Part shown: one piece after another, positions 14,926-55,410 of the stretch
How positions within the stretch are numbered: the first letter of the stretch is position 1
Layout of the letters: the number at the start of each line of letters is the position of its first letter
IMG/VR virus record: IMGVR_UViG_3300045135_000807
Location: 36-64,035 of that record
Strand: one strand, 5' to 3'
Origin: a virus
Lineage: Duplodnaviria; Caudoviricetes
Length of the DNA: 64,000 nt
Position numbers and translations under genes: made by a program
The notes under the pieces: generated by a model
The model's input: only the letters and a program-made list of their open reading frames with translations
Databases searched by the model: none
Told to the model about the DNA's origin: nothing

Positions 14926-15024
14926 GTTTGCGTAACAGCAGCTGCCGTCACATTCCTTTGGTTCTACAGCACAGTACTTACTTTTAACGTCAGTAGTTTG
15001 CTGTTTCTTTTTCTTCTTAGGCAT
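14908..15024 (-). CDS. 38-aa Lys/Cys-rich peptide (not in ORF track)
   Basis: MPKKKKKQQTTDVKSKYCAVEPKECDGSCCYANKKGGS; overlaps the stop of the lipoprotein gene. Confidence 0.4.
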   Translation of the reverse strand: MPKKKKKQQTTDVKSKYCAVEPKECDGSCCYANKKGGS

Positions 15025-15442
15025 TTAATAGATACTTAAAGGTTAGTCTTAATACGAAAGCCACTAGAGCAAACAGTAAAACTAATCCCTGTATCTTCTG
15101 CCAGAGAGTTTTTTCTTTAACATATACAATCTTTTCATAGGGTACTTCAATAGTCGTTACGATCGTATCCGAGGCGCATTCTGCGTTTATAGTAATGGTG
15201 TCGTTCACCTTTACTAATTGTACCTTGAGACGATCCTTCTGAATCACTATAGTATCGTGTTGCTTCAAAGTCACAGTATCCGTGATAGCCACAGGTGGGC
15301 TTACAACCGTGGTCGTCACAACCAGCGTGTCTTTTTCCAGAATCAAAGGGTCTTTTTGCACCGCTTTCTTCAAGTGCCATTGAGCGCTGCAACTCATTAA
15401 TGAGCTTAGCAGAATTAACTTTACCAGCCATTTCATCTTCAT
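15017..15442 (-). CDS. Lipoprotein, putative unimolecular spanin
   Basis: Signal peptide with lipobox LMSC, beta-rich middle and C-terminal TM helix; lysis-cassette position. Confidence 0.6.
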   Translation of the reverse strand: MKMKWLVKLILLSSLMSCSAQWHLKKAVQKDPLILEKDTLVVTTTVVSPPVAITDTVTLKQHDTIVIQKDRLKVQLVKVNDTITINAECASDTIVTTIEVPYEKIVYVKEKTLWQKIQGLVLLFALVAFVLRLTFKYLLNA

Positions 15443-15915
15443 CCGTTATAATCAAAGTCTCTATAAGAAATGGTCACAGATCCTCCCCCCTCAAGAACCT
15501 CAGCGATCTGAGGATATATTCTTTTATACGCTTGAGTAGAGCTACCAATGAAACCATCGCTATCGCCAAAATTCGTTTGTTGACTATCACCAACAAGGAG
15601 ACACCCAGCAGTGTGTTCGTCAGTATTACCAGTATGTATAAGAATATACTCAAAGCCAGGCACGTCACGAACCCATAACATTCCTTTGTGCATCTGGCCA
15701 TACTTCTTTAGATATCTTCCATGAAATCCTCCAGTCGTCCTGAGAGTAATCCTGTATGTTCCTGAAGGGACTCTAGTCTCGCTAGAGACTTTCTCCTCCC
15801 GATACTCGTCTTCAAGCGTGTAGCAAAGGAATCTTCTTTTGCCTCCCGTAACATCAAATAATAGTCCATTCGTGCTGTCTTTCTGGCTGCTAAAGCGCAA
15901 TACCTCTAACTCCAT
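15439..15915 (-). CDS. DUF5675-family protein, putative endolysin
   Basis: CYTLED...TRVPSGTY...ILIHTGNT...TAGCLLVG motif; lies between holin-like and spanin-like genes. Confidence 0.7.
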   Translation of the reverse strand: MELEVLRFSSQKDSTNGLLFDVTGGKRRFLCYTLEDEYREEKVSSETRVPSGTYRITLRTTGGFHGRYLKKYGQMHKGMLWVRDVPGFEYILIHTGNTDEHTAGCLLVGDSQQTNFGDSDGFIGSSTQAYKRIYPQIAEVLEGGGSVTISYRDFDYNG

Positions 15916-16166
15916 CAGTCTTTCTTTTTAGCAAATGCTTCTAAGCCCGCGATACCAAAGCTACCAAGAGTCACTATTACAAAAGAATTGTAAGTAAACT
16001 CATTAATAGGTAGGTTCTTACCCCAAAAGCCGCTCATTACATCAGCTACCATTACCAATACCATAACAGCAAACGATAAGAATCCAATGATGGTCTTCTC
16101 ATTATAGCTGTTGTCTTCCTTAAAGATCTCTTTAAAGCTCATAATTTTTGTGATTAGTTGTTTCAT
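15915..16166 (-). CDS. Putative holin
   Basis: 83 aa, two TM helices, basic C-terminus; coupled to the putative endolysin. Confidence 0.6.
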   Translation of the reverse strand: MKQLITKIMSFKEIFKEDNSYNEKTIIGFLSFAVMVLVMVADVMSGFWGKNLPINEFTYNSFVIVTLGSFGIAGLEAFAKKKD

Positions 16167-25828: not shown

Positions 25829-26748
25829 TACTTAAATCTTTTTTGCTTTAACAGATTTCTAAAGTATTTAGACTCTTTAGATATAGCCTTCGCTTGTTTT
25901 GGATTCAATACGTATTCTCCTCCCGTCATTTCACCAACAACTTGTCCGCCCTGCATCATGTAGATAGGATTAGTATCGTGGTTAAACGCACCATCAGTTA
26001 CCATACCTCCAGATTGAAAATTATTCATTTTTTGTATTGCTCTCATGGCGGCTTCTTCTTCCTCTGGAGTAAGCGTTCCTAGTCCTGCACTATTTGGCTG
26101 ATACATACTTAAAATTGCTTGAGTATCAACTTCAGGTAACCCGGCATTTACCTCTGGCATTTGAATATCAACTTCTTTTGACGGAAGTTCAAGCATATCT
26201 ACTTCTGGAGTTAGATCTGTTTTATTAGAACCGTCACTGATAGATGCACCGTACCCAATAGCAGAACCAATATCAGCGATACCTCCTACAGTATTTTGAA
26301 CACCTGCATTGATAGCTGCTTGAGCTAATCCTTTTTCTTGCATCTCACGCTGCGTGTCACGAGCAATCTGACGCTCAGAACCCATAGCGCTAGCTCCCAG
26401 AGCACGCATAATATCTTGTTGCTGTTGACCTAGTAGCTGATTGGTTGCTGTTGTTCCTGCTTGAGTAACTTTTCCAATACCTCCAATCACAGCTCTTGAA
26501 CCAGCTTGTTGCAAAGCATCTGTTGAGGAAGCTAAGCTGCGGTTGATAGCATCAATACGAGCTTGTACAGCTTGGCCTTTCTTTGCTTCTCTTAGCATTT
26601 GTGCGTACTCATCAGGCTTCATGCGTGAAGCTTCTTGCACACCTGCTAGCGCTTCTCTACCAGCACGCTGCTGATAAAGGCCATAGCCAGTCTTACCTAA
26701 CCCGGCAAGTCCCTGAGCTACAAGAAGTGAAGTGGTAATTGGATCCAT
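25828..26748 (-). CDS. Putative internal virion / ejection protein
   Basis: MDPITT... start, Gly/Ala/Gln-rich hydrophobic N-terminus; C-terminal EMTGGEYVLNP. Confidence 0.6.
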   Translation of the reverse strand: MDPITTSLLVAQGLAGLGKTGYGLYQQRAGREALAGVQEASRMKPDEYAQMLREAKKGQAVQARIDAINRSLASSTDALQQAGSRAVIGGIGKVTQAGTTATNQLLGQQQQDIMRALGASAMGSERQIARDTQREMQEKGLAQAAINAGVQNTVGGIADIGSAIGYGASISDGSNKTDLTPEVDMLELPSKEVDIQMPEVNAGLPEVDTQAILSMYQPNSAGLGTLTPEEEEAAMRAIQKMNNFQSGGMVTDGAFNHDTNPIYMMQGGQVVGEMTGGEYVLNPKQAKAISKESKYFRNLLKQKRFK

Positions 26749-26752
26749 ATTG

Positions 26753-26760
26753 CAAATTTA
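26753..26760 (-). promoter_or_regulatory. TAnnTTTG -7 promoter box
   Basis: TAAATTTG 4 nt upstream of the ATG at 26748. Confidence 0.6.
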
Positions 26761-33833: not shown

Positions 33834-35201
33834 TTATTCACGGATCAAAACGTGCTGGTTAGCTGCACGAGTAACCAAGTTGCACTCAGAGCGGTAGTTG
33901 AACTGCAAGCTATCATCGTTGGTGTTAGTAACACCCAAGATAGAACCAGTCATCCAGTGCTCCATTTCACGGCTGTAACCGTCAAGTGCTTTGTAGTTCA
34001 TCTCTAGAGCGGCAGAACGGCTACCGGTCTTAGGATCAACAACAGAAGTCAAAGGAATCATTGCACCAATGAAGCCTGAGCTACCCAACAATGTTGGATC
34101 GTTCAACAACTTCCAAGACTTGTTGTGGAATGTGTATCCACCACGAGTGAATGATTTGAATCCTAGCTTCACAGCTTGGTCAGCATTCTGGAATGCACCG
34201 AAAGCCATAGGGCCGTTAGTTGGATCAGCGAATCCAGCAGCGCCATTCAAGCCAGCTACCATATCGTCAATTGCCAACATCTGCTTAGTGTTGCTGTAAA
34301 CAGCGTACTCAGGAGCAGCACCTTGCTTATCCAATTCAGCGATAATCAAGTCTAGGTTAGCCAAGCTTGACAATACAGCACCAGAACCAGTAGCTTCTAC
34401 GATACCGCGATCTTCAATAGCTGCAAAGTAACCTTCAGAACCAGAGATAGCTGCGCTACCTGAAGTTGCTGTTGCACTGTAGTTAGCGTTTTTCTCACCT
34501 AGCAACATCATCATCTCACGCTTGTCTAGGAAGCGCTGACGAGTGTCCATCTCACCTTTGATGTACCAGCGGTAGTCGCCGTTACCCAAGTTGATGTAGC
34601 CAATGTTTGTAGCTTGAGAACCAGTAACCTTGAATGTTTCTTTCAAGATCATGTATGGGTTTTCACGCAATACAACGTTGCTTTCCAAGTACTCTGCTGG
34701 CTGTCCTGAACCTTCTGGGTGCAAGTTACCAATGATAGCTGCGTCAACAGCACCAGAAGTTGGGTTAGCACCACCGTCCAAAGCAACAACAGTCAAATCG
34801 TAAGAAGTGGCTGGAGTAGCATCAGGAGTTACTGCTGTTACCAAGTAACGATCAGAACCAATCAACAATACATCTTGTACACGAGCGTAGATAGCTTCGT
34901 CAGCAAGAGTTACTACGATATCTCCGTTTGCATCCCAGTCACCAGTTTGGCGTGCGTGCAAGCGAGCTTCTTCCCACCATTGTACTTTGGTAGCGTTTCC
35001 GGCAGACTTAACTGCTCCTGTCATTTGCAAGAACCCAGTGATACCTTGATCACCGTAAGTTTTTACAAGCGCCTCACGAATATCGGGGCGGTTTACTTCA
35101 TCAATGAAGTCACCTAGAGAGGTGTACTTCGCTGGATCCAAGCGCTTAATCGCCTGGTTTACTCCACCACTGATGGTGGGCTGTCCTGATTTTAAAGCCA
35201 T
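33834..35201 (-). CDS. Major capsid protein
   Basis: 455 aa, follows an acidic scaffold-like gene and precedes a terminator; WWEEARLH and SECNLVTRAAN resemble Bacteroidota phage MCPs. Confidence 0.8.
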   Translation of the reverse strand: MALKSGQPTISGGVNQAIKRLDPAKYTSLGDFIDEVNRPDIREALVKTYGDQGITGFLQMTGAVKSAGNATKVQWWEEARLHARQTGDWDANGDIVVTLADEAIYARVQDVLLIGSDRYLVTAVTPDATPATSYDLTVVALDGGANPTSGAVDAAIIGNLHPEGSGQPAEYLESNVVLRENPYMILKETFKVTGSQATNIGYINLGNGDYRWYIKGEMDTRQRFLDKREMMMLLGEKNANYSATATSGSAAISGSEGYFAAIEDRGIVEATGSGAVLSSLANLDLIIAELDKQGAAPEYAVYSNTKQMLAIDDMVAGLNGAAGFADPTNGPMAFGAFQNADQAVKLGFKSFTRGGYTFHNKSWKLLNDPTLLGSSGFIGAMIPLTSVVDPKTGSRSAALEMNYKALDGYSREMEHWMTGSILGVTNTNDDSLQFNYRSECNLVTRAANQHVLIRE

Positions 35202-35220
35202 GCTCTAAATTTTTTATTTG

Positions 35221-36375
35221 TTAGAAAAATTTCAAAGTTTTGTCTACACCTAACGCATCTAAGATTTGTTGGGAGACATTATCTGTAGGCTGTGCCGTGC
35301 CTACACCCGGTGTTTTGGTCGCTACATTTGCAGCTTGGTCAACGACCTTACGTTGTCCATCACTCAACCCTTGCTGATACAATGATTTAGCAATCGCATC
35401 AATGTTGTCAATCAGCGTCTGATGAATGTTGAACTTGTCGTAGTCCCATTGGCCATCCTGACTAATGTATTGATCAAAAAACGACTCAATGTTTCTGTTC
35501 TTGTCAATCAATTGATTACGGTAGGAATCATTAATGCTAAATTCAAACTCTTTCCCGTCTGCCAGCTCAAAGGTGACAGCATCAAGATTATTGGTTTGCT
35601 CTTGCATGTTCTGAATCCAGCGGTCATCAATCGGTGATTGAACAGCTTCCTCTTGTCGTGGTGCTGGAGCAGCGAACTGTGAGCGTACCTCGTCAATTCC
35701 CTGTCTAGCTTTTTCAGCATCAATCTTTAGCTGTAGCTTGCTAAGCTTGATCTCATCCTCTGAATGATAATCTTCGTCAAGTTTATACTTAGAGCCAACA
35801 AGCATATCAATCTCCTCACCGCTAAGGTTAGGATACTCGTTTGACATAGATACACGGATAGCTGTCATGTCGTCCATTTCGGAAGGATTCAAGCTTTGGT
35901 ATCTAAACCAATCTTCTGGATTGCGGCCTGTTTGCTGTACAAAGTCAGCGATCGCCTTAACACGCTCATCAATTTGTGGTTGCTGAGATTGTTGCTGTAG
36001 TTGTTGCATTACTGCCGACAGCTGATCAATACTCTCTATCTCCACGCCAAGCTTTTCGCTAACGTAACGAGATACAGCTGACTCATCAAGTGTCATCTGT
36101 TCTGCAACAGGTGTTTCCGTATTTAAAGAACTTTCGCCAGCAGGTTCTTCTACTGGCTGAGCAACTGGCTCTTCAGATTCCTGTACAGGTTCTTGTACTT
36201 CTTCTTGTACTTGTTCTTGTACCTCTGGCTCTGCGGGAGGGGTGCTCAAATCTATGTCAAAACTTCCAGGTACTTCTTGTGGAGCGTTCTCCATTCCTTC
36301 CGGCATCGTATCTGAAAAACTAAACCCGGCATCACCGAGTTGACTTTCTAATTGCTGTTCTAATTTATCTTCCAT
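35221..36375 (-). CDS. Putative scaffolding protein
   Basis: Very acidic, E/Q/P-rich helical protein immediately upstream of the MCP. Confidence 0.7.
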   Translation of the reverse strand: MEDKLEQQLESQLGDAGFSFSDTMPEGMENAPQEVPGSFDIDLSTPPAEPEVQEQVQEEVQEPVQESEEPVAQPVEEPAGESSLNTETPVAEQMTLDESAVSRYVSEKLGVEIESIDQLSAVMQQLQQQSQQPQIDERVKAIADFVQQTGRNPEDWFRYQSLNPSEMDDMTAIRVSMSNEYPNLSGEEIDMLVGSKYKLDEDYHSEDEIKLSKLQLKIDAEKARQGIDEVRSQFAAPAPRQEEAVQSPIDDRWIQNMQEQTNNLDAVTFELADGKEFEFSINDSYRNQLIDKNRNIESFFDQYISQDGQWDYDKFNIHQTLIDNIDAIAKSLYQQGLSDGQRKVVDQAANVATKTPGVGTAQPTDNVSQQILDALGVDKTLKFF

Positions 36376-36398
36376 GTTTATTAAATTGAATTGTGTTA

Positions 36399-36406
36399 CA
36401 AAATTA
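36399..36406 (-). promoter_or_regulatory. TAnnTTTG -7 promoter box for scaffold/capsid
   Basis: TAATTTTG upstream of the ATG at 36375. Confidence 0.55.
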
Positions 36407-36428
36407 ACACTTTTATTAATATCTTTTT

Positions 36429-36971
36429 TTATCTGTACTTATTGAAGTACTCCATAATCTCAGACTCTAGTTTAGTGTCCATAACATAGTTGCCGTCATA
36501 CTCAATACTGGCAAAGGTTCCATCGCCTTCCTCAACAATTTCTATTCTGTAGACCACGTTTTCATACTTCACTTCAAACAGCTCACTTCTTCTGAGCATA
36601 CTAATATCGTCATTAGACTGAAATACTTTTTCTACATCCTTATGACTAATATCTAGTAGGTTTACAATCTTTACTACGTATCTAGCATAATTAGCCCCCT
36701 GTGTATCCACTAGGAAGTTTTCTTTTAACGTAGTCATTATATAGAACTGCTGACGCTTATCTAAGCCACCAGAGTCAAATCGTCCTGTAAATTTTACCAG
36801 GGGCAAAGACATAATTACATCTTGTATATCCTTAGATAAGCTGTTGTAATCTATCGTTGTTGTTATTTGAGATGGTTTAGATACATTAGAGTCAAAAGGA
36901 AGTCCTATGAGTCGGTAGTAAGTTTCCAAGCCTACCCTATCTTTTATATGTTTAGTCTTTATCCGTTGCAT
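36429..36971 (-). CDS. Hypothetical protein, last gene of the signalling operon
   Basis: 180 aa; overlaps the upstream gene by 20 nt; FLVDTQGANYARY motif. Confidence 0.7.
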   Translation of the reverse strand: MQRIKTKHIKDRVGLETYYRLIGLPFDSNVSKPSQITTTIDYNSLSKDIQDVIMSLPLVKFTGRFDSGGLDKRQQFYIMTTLKENFLVDTQGANYARYVVKIVNLLDISHKDVEKVFQSNDDISMLRRSELFEVKYENVVYRIEIVEEGDGTFASIEYDGNYVMDTKLESEIMEYFNKYR

Positions 36972-37497
36972 ACTTCACACCCATAATAGTACCTACAATA
37001 CTAAAAGCGTTAGTAAGCAGGATACCAAACATATTAGACCAGGTACTGCCTATAATCTGTGTATCTGTTCCAGACATTATTGCCCATCCATACATTAATG
37101 TCGTAAGCACACCGACTCCTACAATCACCCATAAAGCTACCTTTACAATAGTGCTAATGAGCTCAAACTGCGTGCGCTTCTGCATTACCTCTAGGTCTTC
37201 CAACGCTTCGTCACGCAATTTCTTGGTTTCCTCTAGTGAATTCTGTAACTCTATCACCAACGCCTCCTTGATTACCGCTGCCTCTTCAAGCTCCCTGTTT
37301 TGCTTCTGGACCTGCTTGGTAATCTGTAGGCGTTTCTTCCTAGCTGTTATGTCCTTACGTTTACACTCTTCTATGTAAGCCTTGACAGCAGGATCAGAGG
37401 AATCTTCCAATAGCTTAACAAAGTTTCCTTCTATGTAAACTTTTTTAGCCTTGGCTTTTAATATTGCCTCTTTTACTGTGTCTTTGGAGCTTATCAT
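36952..37497 (-). CDS. Coiled-coil protein with two C-terminal TM helices
   Basis: Heptad region QITKQVQ...EVMQK, then VALWVIVGVGVL and MFGILLTNAFSIVG; 4-nt overlap with the response regulator. Confidence 0.75.
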   Translation of the reverse strand: MISSKDTVKEAILKAKAKKVYIEGNFVKLLEDSSDPAVKAYIEECKRKDITARKKRLQITKQVQKQNRELEEAAVIKEALVIELQNSLEETKKLRDEALEDLEVMQKRTQFELISTIVKVALWVIVGVGVLTTLMYGWAIMSGTDTQIIGSTWSNMFGILLTNAFSIVGTIMGVKYATDKD

Positions 37498-37931
37498 TTA
37501 TATATCTTGAATGGGCCAGTTTTATCTTTGTACCCTTCGTAGTCTTCTTTAAATTCTTCTAGGCGTGGTTCAATGTCGTCAGATTTAATAATCCAAAATT
37601 GTGCGCCTGCCTTCTTAGCTTTTTCAATTTCTTGGTTATCGTCAGATGAAGAAATGATACCAATCACACAACCGTTGCCGTAGTCAAAGTTGATTTTGCG
37701 AATCATCTCAATACCGTCAAAGCTAGACCCTATGATATTTAAATCTACAAACACACATTCTGGGCGTTCATCATTAGGGTCGTCTGGAAACCATCCCTTA
37801 AATTTTCTGTCTGCTTCGTCTGAGGAGTCTAACGCCTCTAGAGACAGTGTTATGTCTAGTATGCTACACGCATCTTCAAATACCAAGTGGAATAGATCCT
37901 CATCGTCTATAAGTAATATAGAGTTTATCAT
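37494..37931 (-). CDS. Single-domain response regulator (receiver only)
   Basis: ILLIDDED acidic pocket, phospho-acceptor VFVDLN, ISSS, conserved Lys in WIIKS. Confidence 0.9.
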   Translation of the reverse strand: MINSILLIDDEDLFHLVFEDACSILDITLSLEALDSSDEADRKFKGWFPDDPNDERPECVFVDLNIIGSSFDGIEMIRKINFDYGNGCVIGIISSSDDNQEIEKAKKAGAQFWIIKSDDIEPRLEEFKEDYEGYKDKTGPFKIYK

Positions 37932-39163
37932 TGTTTTATGTTTATTAGTAGTTTAGTTCCTTGTTCTTTTTTTTCTGCTCGGATACTGAATCCGTGTTCT
38001 TTTAATATAGCAAGACAGATGTTTAGCCCTAAGCCAGTTCCCTGCTCTTCCTGCCCTTTCTTTCTTGTGTAAGGCTTAGAGTATTCATTAAACTCAGATT
38101 GACTCATACCACGGCCATTGTCTTCAATGCACAGGTGGTCATTGTCTTGCATATATATAGATACAAATTTAGTAGAGCTATCGTTATACTTTAACCCATT
38201 GCGAATCAGGTTATCAATAGCCGTACAGAACAAAGGTTCATTTACTAATACAGACGGTAAGTTATCTATCTTGACTTGTTTTATATAAGATGTGCTTTTC
38301 AAATATTCTTTAAGTATCTCTGTAAGATTACACTTTTCTTTATCTAGCTGCGCATCTTCTTTGACGAGGTTGGTAAATTCCTTGACACCTAGATATACTT
38401 TCTGTGTGTGCCGTAGCCCCTCTTCAAGCATTTTAAGTGGAGCCTGTATCTTCAGTTGCTTAATATCATCATCTGTTATCCTGCGCTTTAAGGACGTTAA
38501 TCCTCTAGGCATATATGTATTGATGCCTGAGTGCATATCATGCCTTAGAATCTTTGCTGCGTGTTCTAGGTAGGAGTTTTTCTGATTCACCATATCTTCT
38601 GCTTCGTGCTGAGATGTGATGTCAGTAGCTATCTTTAGCACCTTAGTATACTTTCCGTGTTTGTCTTTTACAGGGGTGTAATGTCCAAACAACCACAGCT
38701 GTTTGCCATCTTTAGAAACTCTTTCAAACTCACCACTTACCGTTTCTCCATTTGCTAGCCTTCTCCAGAAATAAGAATATTCCATACTCTCTCTGTAGTC
38801 TTTTGGTACAAGCTTTTTATGGTTCATCCCCTTCACACCATTTTCAGAGTATCCTGTGGCAATAGAAAAGTTTTTGTTTACGGATCGTATAACACCATCC
38901 ATATCCATAGTAACAACTAAATTGGATTTATCAATAGCTTTAAGCTGTATGTTTATGTTTTCTTCTTTAATCTTTGTGGAACTAACAAAGCTGTATACCA
39001 CATAGAAGAATGGTGGCATAAATGAAATTACGCAAGCGTAACCAAACTCAGCAAGAAAATAAGTGGGTTGACAGATTCTAAATACTATACAGGTCTGTAC
39101 AGCAAAGAACGTGAGCATAATGAGGGCAGATACACCTAGACATATTTTTGCTACACGATTCAT
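37928..39163 (-). CDS. Membrane PAS-domain sensor histidine kinase
   Basis: Two TM helices, PAS/PAC domain (...FERVSKDGKQLW...KIATDIT), H-box LRHDMHS, N-box DNLIRNGLKYN, G1 IEDNGRGM, G2 GTGLGL. Confidence 0.92.
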   Translation of the reverse strand: MNRVAKICLGVSALIMLTFFAVQTCIVFRICQPTYFLAEFGYACVISFMPPFFYVVYSFVSSTKIKEENINIQLKAIDKSNLVVTMDMDGVIRSVNKNFSIATGYSENGVKGMNHKKLVPKDYRESMEYSYFWRRLANGETVSGEFERVSKDGKQLWLFGHYTPVKDKHGKYTKVLKIATDITSQHEAEDMVNQKNSYLEHAAKILRHDMHSGINTYMPRGLTSLKRRITDDDIKQLKIQAPLKMLEEGLRHTQKVYLGVKEFTNLVKEDAQLDKEKCNLTEILKEYLKSTSYIKQVKIDNLPSVLVNEPLFCTAIDNLIRNGLKYNDSSTKFVSIYMQDNDHLCIEDNGRGMSQSEFNEYSKPYTRKKGQEEQGTGLGLNICLAILKEHGFSIRAEKKEQGTKLLINIKQ

Positions 39164-39318
39164 TCATCTTTATTCTTTCTTAAAAAATACCAGCGCTGGG
39201 CGGTGTAACCTATAGAAATTAGAAGCAGTGTGATTTTGAGCGCCATCTCAACTTGTGCAAAGCTTATTGCAAACGTGCTTGCGTTTAACAGCATTAGTTT
39301 AATATCTGTGTCATTCAT
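39160..39318 (-). CDS. 52-aa membrane protein, holin-like (not in ORF track)
   Basis: MNDTDIKLMLLNASTFAISFAQVEMALKITLLLISIGYTAQRWYFLRKNKDE; ATGA overlap with the kinase start. Confidence 0.7.
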   Translation of the reverse strand: MNDTDIKLMLLNASTFAISFAQVEMALKITLLLISIGYTAQRWYFLRKNKDE

Positions 39319-39320
39319 TT

Positions 39321-39611
39321 TTACCACTTCACTTTATTGGCCCAAAACGCAGCAGACAGCTTACCCTTTGCGATATTGCGTCTGTGACGTGCCTTGAATG
39401 ATGCACGTTTCTTTTTCATACGATCTGATTCACCAGCCTTAGGCTTTCCAGCTGTCTTAGCACCCTGTTCTCCAAAGCGGATAGTCTTGATTGTGTCACC
39501 CACCTTAGCCACTACGATGTGTGACTTCTTAGGGTGATTCGGTGTGCGTTTTGGTTTATTGAAACCGCTTACACCTGCTCTTGCTAAACGTGAATCTTTC
39601 TTTGCTTTCAT
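39321..39611 (-). CDS. Highly basic conserved phage protein
   Basis: KTIRFGEQG...RASFKARH...SAAFWANKVKW motif; start moved to the ATG at 39611. Confidence 0.7.
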   Translation of the reverse strand: MKAKKDSRLARAGVSGFNKPKRTPNHPKKSHIVVAKVGDTIKTIRFGEQGAKTAGKPKAGESDRMKKKRASFKARHRRNIAKGKLSAAFWANKVKW

Positions 39612-39616
39612 AAACA

Positions 39617-39624
39617 CAAAGATA
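39617..39624 (-). promoter_or_regulatory. TAnnTTTG -7 promoter box heading the signalling operon
   Basis: TATCTTTG 5 nt upstream of the ATG at 39611, right after a terminator. Confidence 0.6.
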
Positions 39625-39625
39625 T

Positions 39626-39658
39626 AAAAAAAGAGGGCTACATTTCTGTAACCCTCTT
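39626..39658 (-). terminator. Rho-independent terminator
   Basis: On the - strand: AAGAGGGTTACA-GAAA-TGTAGCCCTCTT followed by a T-run. Confidence 0.8.
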
Positions 39659-39682
39659 AGCGTCAAACAATTAGTTATAAGG

Positions 39683-39940
39683 TTATTCTGTAACCTCTTC
39701 TGCTTCTTCTACAACCTCTTCGTATTCACCTGTTGAAAGGTCTACAGAGATTGAACCGTACTTGTCTTCAAGCTCCTTTTGCGCAGCACCCATAGCCTCT
39801 TCCATAGAAACTACTTGAAGCTGTGCTTTGTATGCTTGGTTAGACAAATCGCCAAGAATAGTCTTAGCTTGATTGAGGTTAGATACTGCCGTCTGGATAG
39901 ACTTCAATTCCTCTTCCGTGAGTTTTAGCTTATCAGCCAT
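39683..39940 (-). CDS. Small acidic coiled-coil protein (possible tail-fibre chaperone)
   Basis: 85 aa, LEDKYGSISVDLSTGE; TATATTTG box at 39974-39981. Confidence 0.6.
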   Translation of the reverse strand: MADKLKLTEEELKSIQTAVSNLNQAKTILGDLSNQAYKAQLQVVSMEEAMGAAQKELEDKYGSISVDLSTGEYEEVVEEAEEVTE

Positions 39941-39990
39941 AATCTTTAAATATTTAAGTTAATTAACCAGATACAAATATAATACAAAAC

Positions 39991-40437
39991 CTATAATGAT
40001 GTCAAGATGGCAATCCCTAGCCATAGTATGCTGACACCATAGTTTAGTACAGCTGTCTGTACGTCATCCAAACGTACAAGCACTGGGTAACCCAGCTTCT
40101 TGCCTTTGTATTGGAATAGCCCTTCACCGTTGTGACAGCTTAACCATTCCTTCTTACCGAAGATGAGTCTACGTGGCTTGTCAATTAGGTCTGGCATACA
40201 CCCCATAACGTATCCGAAGGATGCTAACCAGAAGTTACCGAAGAGGTACGCCCCTACTAGGAACATAGCAAAAGCTGTTGCTTCAATGATGGTAGCGTGG
40301 AACTGATCCTTTAGTCCAGACTCACCCACATAGTCCCACACAAAGTGAGATACAAAAGCAACTGAGCCACCAAGGATATAATCCCCAGTGGCTAGTGTAA
40401 TTGCTGCTCCTGTAGTTCCGTGAACGGAAAACCACAT
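39991..40437 (-). CDS. Multi-pass membrane protein with metal-hydrolase-like His/Asp motifs
   Basis: HGTTG, SHFVWD, MPDLID and SCH motifs among several TM helices. Confidence 0.55.
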   Translation of the reverse strand: MWFSVHGTTGAAITLATGDYILGGSVAFVSHFVWDYVGESGLKDQFHATIIEATAFAMFLVGAYLFGNFWLASFGYVMGCMPDLIDKPRRLIFGKKEWLSCHNGEGLFQYKGKKLGYPVLVRLDDVQTAVLNYGVSILWLGIAILTSL

Positions 40438-40802
40438 TATTCAGCAGGTGCTTCTTCAACAACAGGCTCTGCAATAGTAAGAGTCACAGATGATGGTGCA
40501 GCAAGTTCTGCAATCTGTGAGTCTAGAGAAGCCTCTAGTTCTGCTACACGCTCAGTGCCCATAGCTGCCTGTGTCCAAGCAATCATTTGGTCGTGAGTAA
40601 CTGATTCAAAAGCTGTAAAGCCTGATAGGTCTGCAACTTCTAAAGATTGTGTTCCGATAACAGTAGCACTGTTTGTACCGTCTGATCCTGTTACACGCCA
40701 GTGTACGTTGTAGACTACTTGAGATTCGGTTACTCCGTTCTCGTCTGTGTGTGATGGGTACGCATCTACTGTGCGACAGTCCCAAGAATAAGTGTTAGCC
40801 AT
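40437..40802 (-). CDS. Tail-fibre-associated protein
   Basis: YSWDC...VVYNVHWRVTG...MIAWTQAAMG pattern; downstream of the fibre genes; TATTTTTG box at 40829-40836. Confidence 0.6.
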   Translation of the reverse strand: MANTYSWDCRTVDAYPSHTDENGVTESQVVYNVHWRVTGSDGTNSATVIGTQSLEVADLSGFTAFESVTHDQMIAWTQAAMGTERVAELEASLDSQIAELAAPSSVTLTIAEPVVEEAPAE

Positions 40803-40843
40803 TTTAAAATGTTTTTGTTATAACGTTACAAAAATACTAATTT

Positions 40844-41326
40844 TTAACAAGCAGATACAGCTTCAATAACTGTTTCGCCCCCACCGCCTTGCAATATGTA
40901 TATGGAATAACTAAGTCCGCTTGTTGTATCTATGTATTTGTACCAGTACCCGAAGTCACGTATACCGTATGGAGTGGTAAGTGCAGAGTCTGAAAACAAA
41001 TAATCTCCAGCGGAAGGAACAGAGGAGCTACCATTCTTGTATATGGGGTTTGTGGCATCTTGAGCACATCCCTCAGCGCCAGACGTTCCGAAACCAGAGG
41101 AAATTAATCCACTATATGCCGTAGATCCGCTTGCACTATGATCGTATCCGTACCACTCACTCATAGAAGCTGGGTTGGTAGCACTAGGATATGAAGCGGA
41201 ATTAGTATTGATGGTGGCGTATGTGCCGTTCTCAGCAGAATCAAGAGAGATGGTAGCGGTACTAGACCGCCCCAACTCTGTATTGATTTCACTCATCTTA
41301 ATAGTTCCACTACTTTGTAAGGCCAT
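40844..41326 (-). CDS. Tail-fibre tip / adhesin-like protein
   Basis: MALQSSGTIKMSEINTELG N-terminus of the kind that follows S74-chaperone fibres; overlaps the fibre stop. Confidence 0.55.
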   Translation of the reverse strand: MALQSSGTIKMSEINTELGRSSTATISLDSAENGTYATINTNSASYPSATNPASMSEWYGYDHSASGSTAYSGLISSGFGTSGAEGCAQDATNPIYKNGSSSVPSAGDYLFSDSALTTPYGIRDFGYWYKYIDTTSGLSYSIYILQGGGGETVIEAVSAC

Positions 41327-44300
41327 TGATGATTTCTTTTAGTTCGTCAATCTGTTGTTGCTGTTCCTTGACAGCTTCAATAAGTACAGCTGTTAGTCTA
41401 GCGTAGTTTACGGTCTTGTAGTCTTCACCAGTCTTGCTTGTTGCCTTGCCTTCTTCATCGCTACCGATATCAAATGGTGCCAGGTGTACTAGCTGTGGGA
41501 ATACAGCTTCTACATCTTGAGCGATAACCCCGACATCATTCGTCTTTGTAGATGGCTCAAAGCCAAGCTCCTGAGACTTCTCGTTCCAATCAAAGGTTAC
41601 CCCCTTGAGTTGCTTGATCTTGTTTACAGCGTTCTCTATAGGCTTGATGTTTTCCTTGAGTCGCTCATCTGAAGAGTAAGCAACAACATCACCTGTTGCA
41701 CTAAGCTGTCCTGTTACTTTGATACCACCGTTAGAGTCAGCCTCTAGAACCGTAGCACCATTGTAGTGAATCTCAACACCACCAGTACCATCGTATAATG
41801 CAATACCGTTAGACTGTTGCGTGTTGTAGATAGCGTAATCACCTACATTAATGTTCTTGATTTGTATAGCATCAGAGTCACCTACGAATTGAGCAATTAC
41901 TGCTCCGCTACTACTGTTAGGGTTTCTAACGTATAGTGCAGCGTTGTTTGTATTTGACGCATCATTATCTACGTGAAGTTTGTAAGAAGGGCTAGTCGTG
42001 CCTATACCCACATTACCACCCCCTCCGGTCATTATAATGTTTCCAGATCCTGAGTTTTGCAGATACAAAGCAGCTCCATTATCCATATAGATCTGATCAA
42101 CTTTGTCTAACTGCAATGCCTTACTAGTACCAGCGCTGAAGAACATTTTTTGAACGTTGGTAGAATGTGTGCCAACAACGTGAAGAGGAACTGATGGACT
42201 AGTAGTACCTATACCTAAGTTACCGCTACCGTCAAGAGTCATAACCTGACTTAACGTTGCAGCAGAGTCTACAGCTACTGTTTGGTAAGCACCAGTCCAC
42301 CATTGATGTGTAGAGCCGTGCTGTACGTATGCTGATCTTTCTAGGTTTGCTAGAGCAGAAGAACTTAGGAATGCACCTGCCGCTGTTGTAGATGGTTTAA
42401 CACCGTATCCAATAACAGCACCTCCTGCACTGTATCCACCACCAATAGTAATGATGTTTCCATTGTTGTACTTCCCTACAAGTATTAGAGATCCTGAAGT
42501 ACTGTTAGCTGTACCTGCATATATAGCTCCTTCAACGTGTAGTTTTTGATTCGGACCAGTCGTCCCAATACCCACGTTGCCAGCACCGCTAATAATCATT
42601 TTAGTGGTAAGAGTTCCAAACCCGGTTTGAAATTGAAATTGACCATTATATGGGCTGTTTTCTGTTTCAACAACTATAGCAGCTCTGTCAAAACTAGCGC
42701 TATTGCCTCCGGCATCGCTAAACAATATTCGTGTTTTGTTTGCTACTGCTAAACCATTATTGTCAAGTCTTAACTCGCCCCCAATACCGCCTGTATTAGA
42801 TTTATATATATGTAATTGAGACTTAGGACTAGTAGTCCCCATACCTATATTACCGCCACCATCAAAGAACATTTCTGTTCTGTTATCAGTGAAGTTCTGT
42901 ATTTGAAGACCTGTCCCGGCAGATTGCACAAAACCATAGTCATCGTATCCAGACCTAGACATTTTAATAGGAGTGCCGCTAGAGGTGATGTGTAGGTTAG
43001 CTGTAGGGCTAGCTGTGCCTATACTGATGTTTCCGCCAAAGTAACCACCGCCACTAGACATAGTGGTGAATTCATTTCTATTGCTATCGCTAATGTACAA
43101 TACAGAGCTGCCTGTAGTTCCTGAAGGCTCTGTAGCTGTAGCTGACGCAGCGACATTCGTTGATGATTCAACAGTAACGTTTGAACGATATACAAAAGAT
43201 CCGCTTCCAGAAGCAATACCAGCAAGCTTAACCCATACATCCTGTACAGCTCCACTTGAGTTGATTACTTTTATCCCCAACACCTTACTTGTATTGTACT
43301 TGCTTCCTGGGAGTCGGTATATATGCGTCTGCATACCATAGCTAGAATGAGAGATCAAGTACTCATCATACATATTGGTGTTGTCCCCACCGTGGTTTAG
43401 CCATAGGCGAATACGTCTAGGGCCGCCATTGTATGAAATTACTTTAACCCACTCATCACTAGGGCTTGTACCGGCATCTCTAGTCCAAGTTCCTGTACGT
43501 GCTAATGGAGCTATGTATTCAGTACCCGCTATCTGGTTTATCCCACCTATATAGAATCCTGTAGCGTTTATATTTCCATTAACATCAAGATTGTAAGAAG
43601 GACTAGTCGTCCCGATACCAACATTGCCAGAGCCTTTTATGGTCATAACATCAGTTATTGCACTTGAATAACCTTTTATGATCATAGTTGACTCGTACGT
43701 TCCAGATGTTAATCCAGTAGTAAATATTCCAAAATTACCTGCTGCACTATATGATGCGTTTGGCCTAAAGTACAGAGTTGCTCCTGTCGTTCCAGATATT
43801 ACAGCTTCACCAACACCTGATGCATTATCAACGTGAAGCTTTCTACCTGGACTAGTAGTTCCTATACCAACGTTGCCTGATGAATTAATTCTAAATACAT
43901 CGGAACCAGACATTCTGAAGTTAATATAACCTGATGTCTTAAATTGTATGTTATTCCAATCTAAGGTATCACCACCGCCTCCCAAAATTAAAGTTTGAGT
44001 ACCGTCTGCTGCCCTAGGTCTTAAGTAGTTTGTGCCTCTTTCAAATTCAACACCAAAACCCGTTAAGTAAGCACTACCATCGGTATCGTTATAATCAGCT
44101 CTAATGTGTCCTTTAACGTGAAGCTTTTGTGCTGGACTAGTAGTTCCGATACCTACGTTGCCCTTATCGGTAATTCTAAAGTGTTCAGTAAGTGTACCGT
44201 TTCCAGCTTGATCCGTACCCTCAGCAGTATACACAACAAAGTTACCACAGCCCTCACTAATCAACCCACTGTCTCCATCGCTGTCCTTGACAATCATACC

Positions 44301-55017: not shown

Positions 55018-55393
55018 TTACATCTTCGTTTACTTTAAACACCCCGTACATCCAAGTGACAATAGTTGACCCTTGTACAGATTGTAAATCGTAAACGTAG
55101 ATACCGCCATCAATGGTAGCCATAATAGAAGCGGGAGAAGTAATTGTAAGGACACCGTTTGCATCGCCAACAAAACCAAAGTCGTTATCAGTCTCATCGT
55201 CTGAGTCACCACTCAAAGCTGCTGTAACTGAAGTATCTGACTCTCGCACTTGCATTACCCAGTCGTAACCTACGGATAGGTCAATGACGTTGCCGTCTTC
55301 GTCTTTAAATGTAAGTTCCAGTGTGAATGTATCGCCTTTGCGACAGGTGATGTCTACCCTTGATGCTATGTCTAAGTTTACGCTAGTTGCCAT
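55010..55393 (-). CDS. Ig-like virion protein (BppU-N-like)
   Basis: RKGDTFTLELTF...IDL...GIYVYDLQ...GVFKV beta-sandwich pattern; TAAATTTG box at 55398-55405. Confidence 0.6.
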   Translation of the reverse strand: MATSVNLDIASRVDITCRKGDTFTLELTFKDEDGNVIDLSVGYDWVMQVRESDTSVTAALSGDSDDETDNDFGFVGDANGVLTITSPASIMATIDGGIYVYDLQSVQGSTIVTWMYGVFKVNEDVSE

Positions 55394-55410
55394 ATTGCAA
55401 ATTTACTAAA

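Follow-up and report, generated by a model that had tools for sequence, protein, structure and literature searches.

Why does a phage keep a two-component signalling pair among the genes for its virion, and on what could such a pair act? The question is raised by a 64,000-nucleotide stretch of viral DNA (Duplodnaviria; Caudoviricetes), hereafter called the window, which is nearly all of the 64,035-bp IMG/VR virus record IMGVR_UViG_3300045135_000807. Six open reading frames (ORFs) lie on its minus strand from 39617 to 36429, and they include a histidine kinase, a response regulator that consists of a receiver alone and a protein with a membrane hairpin. Lysis timing decides burst size and phage fitness, and we know of no well-studied case in which phages sense conditions to shift the time of lysis other than lysis inhibition in the T-even phages and ICP1. 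At about even confidence, we favour the reading that these genes form a phosphorelay owned by the phage, and that its output, a virus-specific membrane hairpin, belongs to the lysis machinery, thereby placing lysis under the control of a signal. The conserved parts of the proteins are intact, the order of the genes is conserved, and the genes are associated with lysis genes.

The kinase gene (37928..39163, minus strand) encodes 411 amino acids with two N-terminal transmembrane (TM) helices, a cytoplasmic PAS domain, a DHp domain with His208 and an ATPase domain. Pfam recognises a PAS_3 domain (expect value, E, 5.4e-12) and a HATPase_c domain (E 6.8e-14; 52.7 bits at a cut-off of 26.4). Across 63 distinct relatives the H, N, G1 and G2 motifs do not vary. 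Conservation is highest in the DHp domain, where on average a share of 0.79 of the sequences has the same residue as the window, and lowest in the PAS domain (0.56). Residues 195-396 align to the solved kinase 8f71, and His208, which falls on the HD histidine of that structure, is the predicted phospho-accepting residue. The two N-terminal hydrophobic helices, read from the translation, are joined by a loop of fewer than 10 residues; this loop is very short, and the sensing part should therefore be the cytoplasmic PAS domain. By sequence, the best solved match of that domain (residues 83-198) is 3ewk, the PAS-A domain of MmoS that binds flavin adenine dinucleotide (FAD), at E 1.8e-10, followed by aerotaxis-receptor (Aer, 8dik) and LOV entries. 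A flavin cofactor is thus suggested as a lead, not a demonstration.

The receiver gene (37494..37931, minus strand) overlaps the end of the kinase gene and encodes 145 amino acids. The protein passes the Response_reg model (PF00072) marginally, with 30.6 bits at a cut-off of 30.2; it carries no second domain, and no other receiver is encoded in the genome. Residues D9, D10, D63, S94/S95 and K116 are invariant over 25 receiver sequences, in which the mean column identity is 86%, and D63 and K116 align to the corresponding residues of VraR (5hev). The receiver is also the more conserved partner, being 79-96% identical to the window copy where the kinases are only 57-84% identical. An earlier note on this DNA, made from the sequence alone, had described a kinase with intact H/N/G1/G2 boxes and a receiver-only regulator with intact catalytic residues; both descriptions hold across the relatives, and no output domain was found in the regulator.

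The proposed output of the relay is encoded next (36952..37497, minus strand) as a protein of 181 amino acids with a coiled coil and two TM helices. Its structural model, with a predicted local distance difference test score (pLDDT) of 77.4, contains two short N-terminal helices and one helix from 36 to 142 that ends as TM1; after a four-residue turn, TM2 follows at 147-176. TM2 is polar and almost invariant, even in a relative with 67% G+C, and the coiled-coil middle varies in length. No Pfam family matched the protein. A complex of the receiver with hairpin residues 1-115 was also predicted and scored 0.23 and 0.02 (mark 0.32), without controls, and these scores gave no verdict and were not used.

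The conservation of the gene order was examined in IMG/VR, where a scan confirmed at least 595 kinase loci, and the best 80 were compared by tblastn with the window proteins. Kinase and receiver occur in 80 of these 80 loci and the hairpin protein in 77, the remaining three contigs ending before it. The conserved core consists of a small membrane protein, the kinase, the receiver and the hairpin protein. The synteny that the earlier note had proposed to look for in viral contigs is therefore conserved, and its view that complete kinase-regulator pairs are uncommon in small phages stands for cultured phages and fails overall: among 50,697 GenBank phage records the receiver and the hairpin protein have no relative and the kinase only three weak partial matches, against the at least 595 contigs in IMG/VR.

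Cellular genomes were searched with patterns derived from the receiver, using one genome for each of 185,579 species. Seven loci were recovered, of which one is an unrelated kinase-receiver pair. The other six hold the triad of kinase, receiver and hairpin protein, and all are contigs of metagenome-assembled genomes (MAGs) with a G+C content from 39% to 67%; none of the bacterial isolate genomes among these species representatives holds the module. The six contigs (L082-L087) were binned to Verrucomicrobia, Bdellovibrionota, Alphaproteobacteria (two), Gemmatimonadota (the one with 67% G+C) and Bacteroidetes. One of them carries T4-type topoisomerase II genes, and all six look like phage contigs binned with cellular genomes. 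The triad spans phage contigs with a G+C content of 31% to 67% and several virion types, and across these and the MAG contigs the receivers are 63-96% identical. In a quick maximum-likelihood tree of the kinases, all ten head-context kinases and those of two further loci, L006 and L009, form one clade (Shimodaira-Hasegawa-like approximate likelihood ratio test, SH-aLRT, 97), and the genomic contexts cluster on the tree, with 14 changes versus 39.4 in shuffles. The clustering of contexts and the single clade of window-type kinases are as expected if descent has been mostly vertical inside phage lineages.

The integrity of the assembly was also considered. The stretch is present nearly word for word in DNA runs of several other studies, and in an independent study a single 6,230-nt contig covers 33865-40123, thereby crossing both edges of the unit; it differs at 124 positions over the 5,198 letters of its longest piece (34924-40123). 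Misassembly was rejected on the basis of this contig. Capture of a bacterial operon was likewise rejected, given that no isolate genome among the 185,579 species representatives holds the module and that synteny is kept in viral contigs. Neither a near-identical bacterial operon nor a break at the edges of the unit, for both of which we looked, was found. The element is a phage module, not a bacterial operon.

The association with lysis genes was assessed from the neighbourhoods of the cassette. Its genomic contexts number at least five. In the window it lies in a head block of podovirus type, in a group with contractile tails it lies beside baseplate genes (GPW_gp25), and in another group beside ribonucleotide reductase, DnaB and flap endonuclease genes. 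The two-component cassette has a typed holin or endolysin gene (here Phage_holin_4_1, PG_binding_1 plus Amidase_2, or Peptidase_M15_3) no more than four ORFs away in 46 of the 80 loci, and its adjacency to lysis genes is common without being universal.

In the window, a candidate lysis cassette stands at the end of the late block (15017..16166, minus strand). It consists of an 83-amino-acid membrane protein (15915-16166), a protein that matches Pfam DUF5675 at E 8.7e-27 (15439-15915) and a 141-amino-acid protein (15017-15442), all on the minus strand. On structural grounds, the accessible part of a 2026 preprint puts DUF5675 together with the C82-type peptidases in its set of candidate lysins. 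The 141-amino-acid protein has a lipobox-like N-terminus and a C-terminal TM helix, as read from the translation. It has no family match; both features are conserved in L009. The same features, taken from the translation, would give it the architecture of a unimolecular spanin. The two loci nearest to the head-context group place the signalling cassette with homologues of these genes. In L006 it follows homologues of the DUF5675 protein (65% identity) and of the 83-amino-acid membrane protein (74%), and in L009 it lies between a homologue of the 83-amino-acid membrane protein and a homologue of the lipoprotein with a TM helix (56%). Evidently, the cassette moved into the head block in the window lineage, or out of it in the others.

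Further support was obtained from proteins in which the hairpin is joined to a sensor. A search with hairpin residues 100-181 matched 6,633 proteins about as long as the window protein, together with 823 that are longer. In each of the 120 longer proteins among the matches listed, two PAS domains or a GAF domain replace the N-terminal domain of the window protein. The listed fused proteins are 69-78% identical over the hairpin region, homology to the window protein begins near residue 95, and the PAS domains in the fusions share 34-36% identity with that of the kinase. Hairpin-only proteins of 101-109 amino acids were set aside as likely truncated gene calls, for they start at internal methionines of the coiled coil. 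One of the PAS-hairpin fusions occupies at least 120 IMG/VR loci. Among the 80 examined, a Phage_lysozyme, PG_binding_1, Peptidase_M15_3, GH19 or Phage_holin_4_1 gene was found within three ORFs in 69 and within two ORFs in 65; in seven of the remaining 11 loci, no more than two ORFs are present downstream. On the simplest reading, the hairpin would be an effector of lysis clusters and its N-terminus the input, which would be a sensor domain on the same chain in some phages and a docking domain for the phosphorylated receiver in others, including the window phage.

The kinase varies in a similar manner. Its core is also joined in metagenomic proteins to GAF, TPR, GAF plus PAS, three PAS domains or unmatched N-terminal regions, at 45-68% identity over approximately residues 55-410 or 190-410 (P0155, P0238, P0143, P0132, P0191 and others). 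Because the kinase core and the hairpin are each joined to varied sensors, the swapping of inputs on a constant output appears at both levels.

The favoured reading, a signal-gated control of lysis, can be set out as a sequence of steps. The unit would be transcribed late from its own host-type promoter. The kinase would be held in the inner membrane by its two N-terminal helices, and its cytoplasmic PAS domain would read an intracellular cue, for which a flavin-type redox, energy or light signal is our leading guess. It would autophosphorylate at His208 and pass the phosphoryl group to Asp63 of the receiver. The receiver, which lacks an output domain, would then dock on the N-terminal domain of about 70 residues in the 181-amino-acid hairpin protein, and the signal would travel along the long helix of that protein to the membrane hairpin. 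The hairpin would delay or trigger permeabilisation by a holin-like protein of the phage, thereby setting the time of lysis, and the 52-amino-acid membrane protein and the 180-amino-acid soluble protein encoded in the unit would be accessory. Phosphotransfer, docking of the receiver on the hairpin, the nature of the signal and the sense of the effect, be it delay or trigger, are inferred in this scheme.

Several points weigh against the control of lysis. The function is deduced from sequence and gene neighbourhood, and gene neighbourhood is correlative. A typed holin or endolysin gene within four ORFs is absent from 34 of the 80 loci, among which are all those of the head context and of the baseplate group; in the window phage and its 10 nearest head-context relatives the cassette is flanked by head genes, with about 20 kb between it and the candidate lysis cassette. 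The lysis genes of the window are themselves putative, and the case for DUF5675 as a lysin comes from the structural comparison in one preprint, as far as its accessible text goes. The Pfam score of the receiver is just 0.4 bits over the cut-off, and the DHp region of the kinase has no match to a HisKA-family Pfam model. Neither the hairpin protein nor the 52-amino-acid protein matches a holin or antiholin family in Pfam or PHROG; their sole PHROG matches are two families of unknown function at E of about 0.008, in searches that included no direct comparison with T4 RI/RIII or ICP1 ArrA.

An additional gene was observed within the cassette of four loci (L056:10165-10746, L050:10170-10751, L059:7547-8125 and L061). 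It encodes a seven-helix rhodopsin of 192-193 amino acids and lies between the hairpin gene and the gene for a membrane-plus-coiled-coil protein of 165 amino acids (family f8), overlapping both; the four loci fall in two separate kinase subclades. The protein matches Bac_rhodopsin at E 3.8e-12 (46.6 bits versus 24.6), and its best solved matches are proteorhodopsins and the viral rhodopsin OLPVRII. A D-x-x-x-K motif is conserved in the last helix, and the retinal lysine was assigned by inspection. Compared with green proteorhodopsin, the Asp and Thr of helix C are kept and a Gln stands at the position of the Glu that acts as proton donor. Searches with the rhodopsin returned only these four IMG/VR contigs and one distant giant-virus match, and the window has none.

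A narrower form of the favoured reading concerns the cue. Many uncultured marine phages might time lysis by the light or redox state of the host, with the PAS kinase as the reporter and the phosphorylated receiver as a clamp on the hairpin that holds or fires the holin; in a few lineages, the rhodopsin without a carboxylate proton donor may add an input. We regard this light or redox reading as quite unlikely. If it were true, a lysis clock encoded by phages, possibly a diel one, would run in the surface ocean, and the hairpin with its swapped sensors (PAS, GAF and kinase cores with TPR/GAF) would be a set of modular signal-gated lysis switches.

Among the alternatives to the control of lysis, the one that survives best is that the relay controls another membrane event, namely a small channel, a modulator of membrane energetics or superinfection exclusion switched by the state of the infected cell. 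This is unlikely in our judgement, and it accounts for an output in the form of a membrane hairpin whose second helix is polar and hardly varies, for the 34 of 80 loci, including the window lineage, in which the cassette is not beside typed lysis genes, and for the rhodopsin gene directly before the hairpin gene in four loci, which points to membrane energetics or light. It fits less well with the hairpin of the one-component proteins, which in 69 of 80 loci has an endolysin or holin gene no more than three ORFs away, and with the nearest relatives L006 and L009, which have the cassette inside the lysis gene set. Exclusion is usually an early function, and the placement of the cassette in the late operon fits lysis better than exclusion.

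It is very unlikely that the kinase and the receiver act on two-component partners of the host by take-over or cross-talk, the hairpin being merely a tether. A receiver without an output domain that is unusually conserved, as if fitting a conserved partner, would be expected in that case, and phage proteins that interfere with such systems exist: PIT4 of Pseudomonas phage LSL4 interferes with host two-component systems, according to the available part of PMC10714779. However, a host-specific target would not explain receivers that are 63-96% identical across G+C contents of 31-67%, several virion types and MAG bins of five phyla. The partners that co-occur universally with the receiver are the DHp domain of the phage's own kinase and the hairpin, and the fused forms drop kinase and receiver and keep the hairpin. 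Of the outputs that had been suggested for this locus, lysis timing thus gains comparative support; cross-talk and superinfection exclusion keep a small share of probability and gained no specific support.

Almost no credence is due to the view of the unit as a passenger, be it an operon lately captured from bacteria, an assembly chimera or a moron in decay without function, since its G+C slightly below that of the neighbouring head genes and its own terminator and promoter box are set against its absence from isolate genomes among the 185,579 species (only six MAG contigs, one with T4-type topoisomerase genes), at least 595 viral contigs with the kinase and a conserved gene order, a single clade of window-type kinases with invariant catalytic motifs and the independent contig over both edges.

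The record is classed as linear, and its completeness is estimated at 100% by CheckV. Early and replication genes occupy the plus strand up to about 14.6 kb, followed by a long late block on the minus strand with terminase, portal, several proteins of 1,500-2,700 amino acids, a scaffold-like gene and the major capsid gene. The six genes lie within this virion block, as had been claimed, with the portal, terminase and giant proteins upstream and the scaffold-like and major capsid genes downstream. The local G+C content of the unit is 0.384-0.389 versus 0.44-0.45 in the neighbouring head genes. No tyrosine integrase (PF00589) was found in the window, which agrees with the earlier failure to recognise one; ARAGORN found no tRNA in the window, and Rfam gave no match at E <= 0.1 in 35000-41500. 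Virion proteins of Maribacter, Flavobacterium (vB_FspP) and Cellulophaga phages resemble the capsid protein at about 30% identity, and the N-terminal domain of the primase-helicase is BT4734-like. These relatives, this domain and the TAnnTTTG boxes before late genes suggest that the host is a marine member of Bacteroidota, probably of Flavobacteriia. In the major capsid gene, two patches of about 150 nt (34331-34490 and 34763-34924) are replaced in a contig of run X4 by unrelated sequence of similar length, the rest being about 97% identical; they are local hypervariable segments.

The bounded, tightly coupled unit that the earlier note had described, with a terminator and promoter boxes, is present. 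From the second gene to the last, the successive overlaps measure 4, 4, 4 and 20 nt; whether the first two genes overlap by 7 nt or stand 2 nt apart depends on which start codon is used. An intrinsic-terminator-like hairpin (39631..39658, minus strand) closes the transcript of the upstream gene for 85 amino acids; it has a 12-pair stem with five G-C pairs, a 4-nt loop and a T run. Directly after it comes a TATCTTTG box of the TAnnTTTG type (39617..39624, minus strand), 5 nt ahead of the ATG at 39611. The next unit begins at a second box of this type, TAATTTTG (36399..36406, minus strand), 23 nt ahead of the scaffold-like gene. Nine rows of upstream sequence were compared. Six of them contain the complete hairpin followed by TATCTTTG, and the box does not vary among these six; of the other three, two break off within the hairpin and L081 differs in gene order. 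A compensatory change in both arms of the stem in L007 and L008 indicates that the hairpin is a real structure.

TAnnTTTG is the Bacteroidota-type -7 promoter consensus, and the boxes may act as promoters. Over the whole window the motif is not in excess (68 found versus 59.8 expected); 12 of the 68 lie in the intergenic 6.4% of bases (binomial P of about 0.001), and 10 point towards the start of a late gene no more than 60 nt away. A scan for the sigma-70 consensus gave 14 sites versus 15.4 in shuffles, which is no excess. At three late genes (39611-39624, 55393-55405 and 26748-26760) the box stands merely 4-5 nt ahead of the ATG, and the remaining seven gene-facing boxes sit 20-33 nt upstream of the starts. 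If the box serves as a -7 promoter element, the mRNAs of these three genes would have no leader or almost none. RNA run X16 gave contigs over 33841-36101 (the capsid and scaffold-like genes) only and is uninformative on the expression of the cassette.

As a functional unit, the six genes do not all belong together. The first gene (39321..39611, minus strand) encodes a basic protein of 96 amino acids, or of 98 from a GTG at 39617, which matches phrog_7595 at E 1.2e-41. The ATG at 39611 is probably the real start: it is the one used in relatives, and residue 4 is the first that the PHROG match covers. Over 140-290 nt, the gene is 68-75% identical at the DNA level to hypothetical genes of Roseobacter CRP phages and Synechococcus phage S-EIVl, which are phages of other host phyla and carry no such kinase, and in L026, L067 and L081 it follows the gene for the 180-amino-acid protein, behind the cassette. 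The basic protein is accordingly a neighbour rather than a member of the signalling core; it was rejected from that core as a separate, widespread phage gene.

The small membrane protein directly before the kinase (39160..39327, minus strand) has 52 amino acids from the ATG at 39318 or 55 from a GTG. Its family (f18) occurs in 12 loci, the window included, and in 36 other loci an unrelated membrane protein of 62-66 amino acids (f5) takes its place. It matches no Pfam or PHROG family; the label "holin-like", which it had been given, found no holin family to stand on and reflects size and hydrophobicity alone.

The last gene (36429..36971, minus strand) encodes a soluble alpha/beta protein of 180 amino acids, an accessory member of the cassette that is present in 38 of the 80 loci. 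It has no Pfam match. Its model (pLDDT 85.6) gave nothing at E <= 0.001 against the PDB with Foldseek, a best VIA-align Z of 5.2 (8b3s_A, YjbA, over residues 1-120; 6bwo_A over 126-178), which is below the meaningful level, and two unnamed viral proteins in BFVD (E 6.5e-8 and 1.6e-6); the protein atlas search returned no usable match. The f8 protein mentioned above is encoded between the receiver and hairpin genes in 22 loci. It and the 180-amino-acid protein are nearly mutually exclusive, one locus having both, and the two may be alternative accessory parts.

The module is widespread, with at least 595 IMG/VR contigs that carry the kinase and 6,633 plus 823 database proteins that carry the hairpin. 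If the favoured reading is true, a phosphorelay or a one-chain sensor acting on a membrane protein of lysis clusters would be a second and far more programmable route to the control of lysis time. It would bear on how marine viral lysis responds to light, redox state and nutrients, and it would offer synthetic biology a compact and portable switch from signal to lysis.

A search of the literature, in which subscription journals and supplementary files were outside the scope, found no description of the module. Histidine kinases adjoin curli genes in pelagiphages, according to the accessible part of PMC9599517. In comparison with the flavin-binding PAS domain of MmoS, His115 of the window kinase aligns with the MmoS His. 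The LOV motif has a Cys that forms the adduct, and unlike LOV domains the window protein has no Cys at that position. In the SRII-HtrII-CheA-CheY system, a sensory rhodopsin with a coiled-coil transducer of two TM helices feeds a kinase and CheY. A similar set is seen in the four rhodopsin loci, where the rhodopsin gene overlaps the gene for the coiled-coil hairpin with two TM helices in an operon with the kinase and the CheY-like receiver. By contrast, a rhodopsin is absent from the window, the hairpin protein lacks HAMP and MCP domains and is encoded downstream of the receiver, and the pairing is rare (four IMG/VR contigs).

The nearest functional parallels are found in lysis inhibition. In T4, the holin T with the antiholin RI alters lysis time on superinfection, as described in the available part of PMC11413866, and in ICP1 the membrane-associated antiholin of the TeaA/ArrA pair does so, as described in the available part of PMC7182436. 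As far as these descriptions go, the present module would share with them the adjustment of lysis time to what is sensed, by way of a membrane-associated regulator whose gene accompanies the lysis genes, with the action of the hairpin on the holin being presumed. The input differs: in the descriptions of T4 and ICP1, superinfection is sensed directly by the antiholin, with neither phosphotransfer nor a cytoplasmic sensor domain. In the window and its fused relatives, the input would come through a kinase and a receiver, or through PAS or GAF domains on the same chain.

Single-domain receivers that act by protein contact are found in CheA-CheY, which acts on FliM, in KinA-Spo0F and in DivJ/PleC-DivK. 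The phage pair has the same parts, namely a kinase of PAS, DHp and ATPase domains and a receiver of about 120 residues with the full catalytic set and no output domain. It differs in that the kinase has no HisKA Pfam match and in that the pair was found in lytic-type phages only, with no isolate genome or GenBank phage record among its carriers. It differs further in its fixed third partner, which is a coiled-coil membrane hairpin, not a motor switch, a phosphotransferase or a transcription factor.

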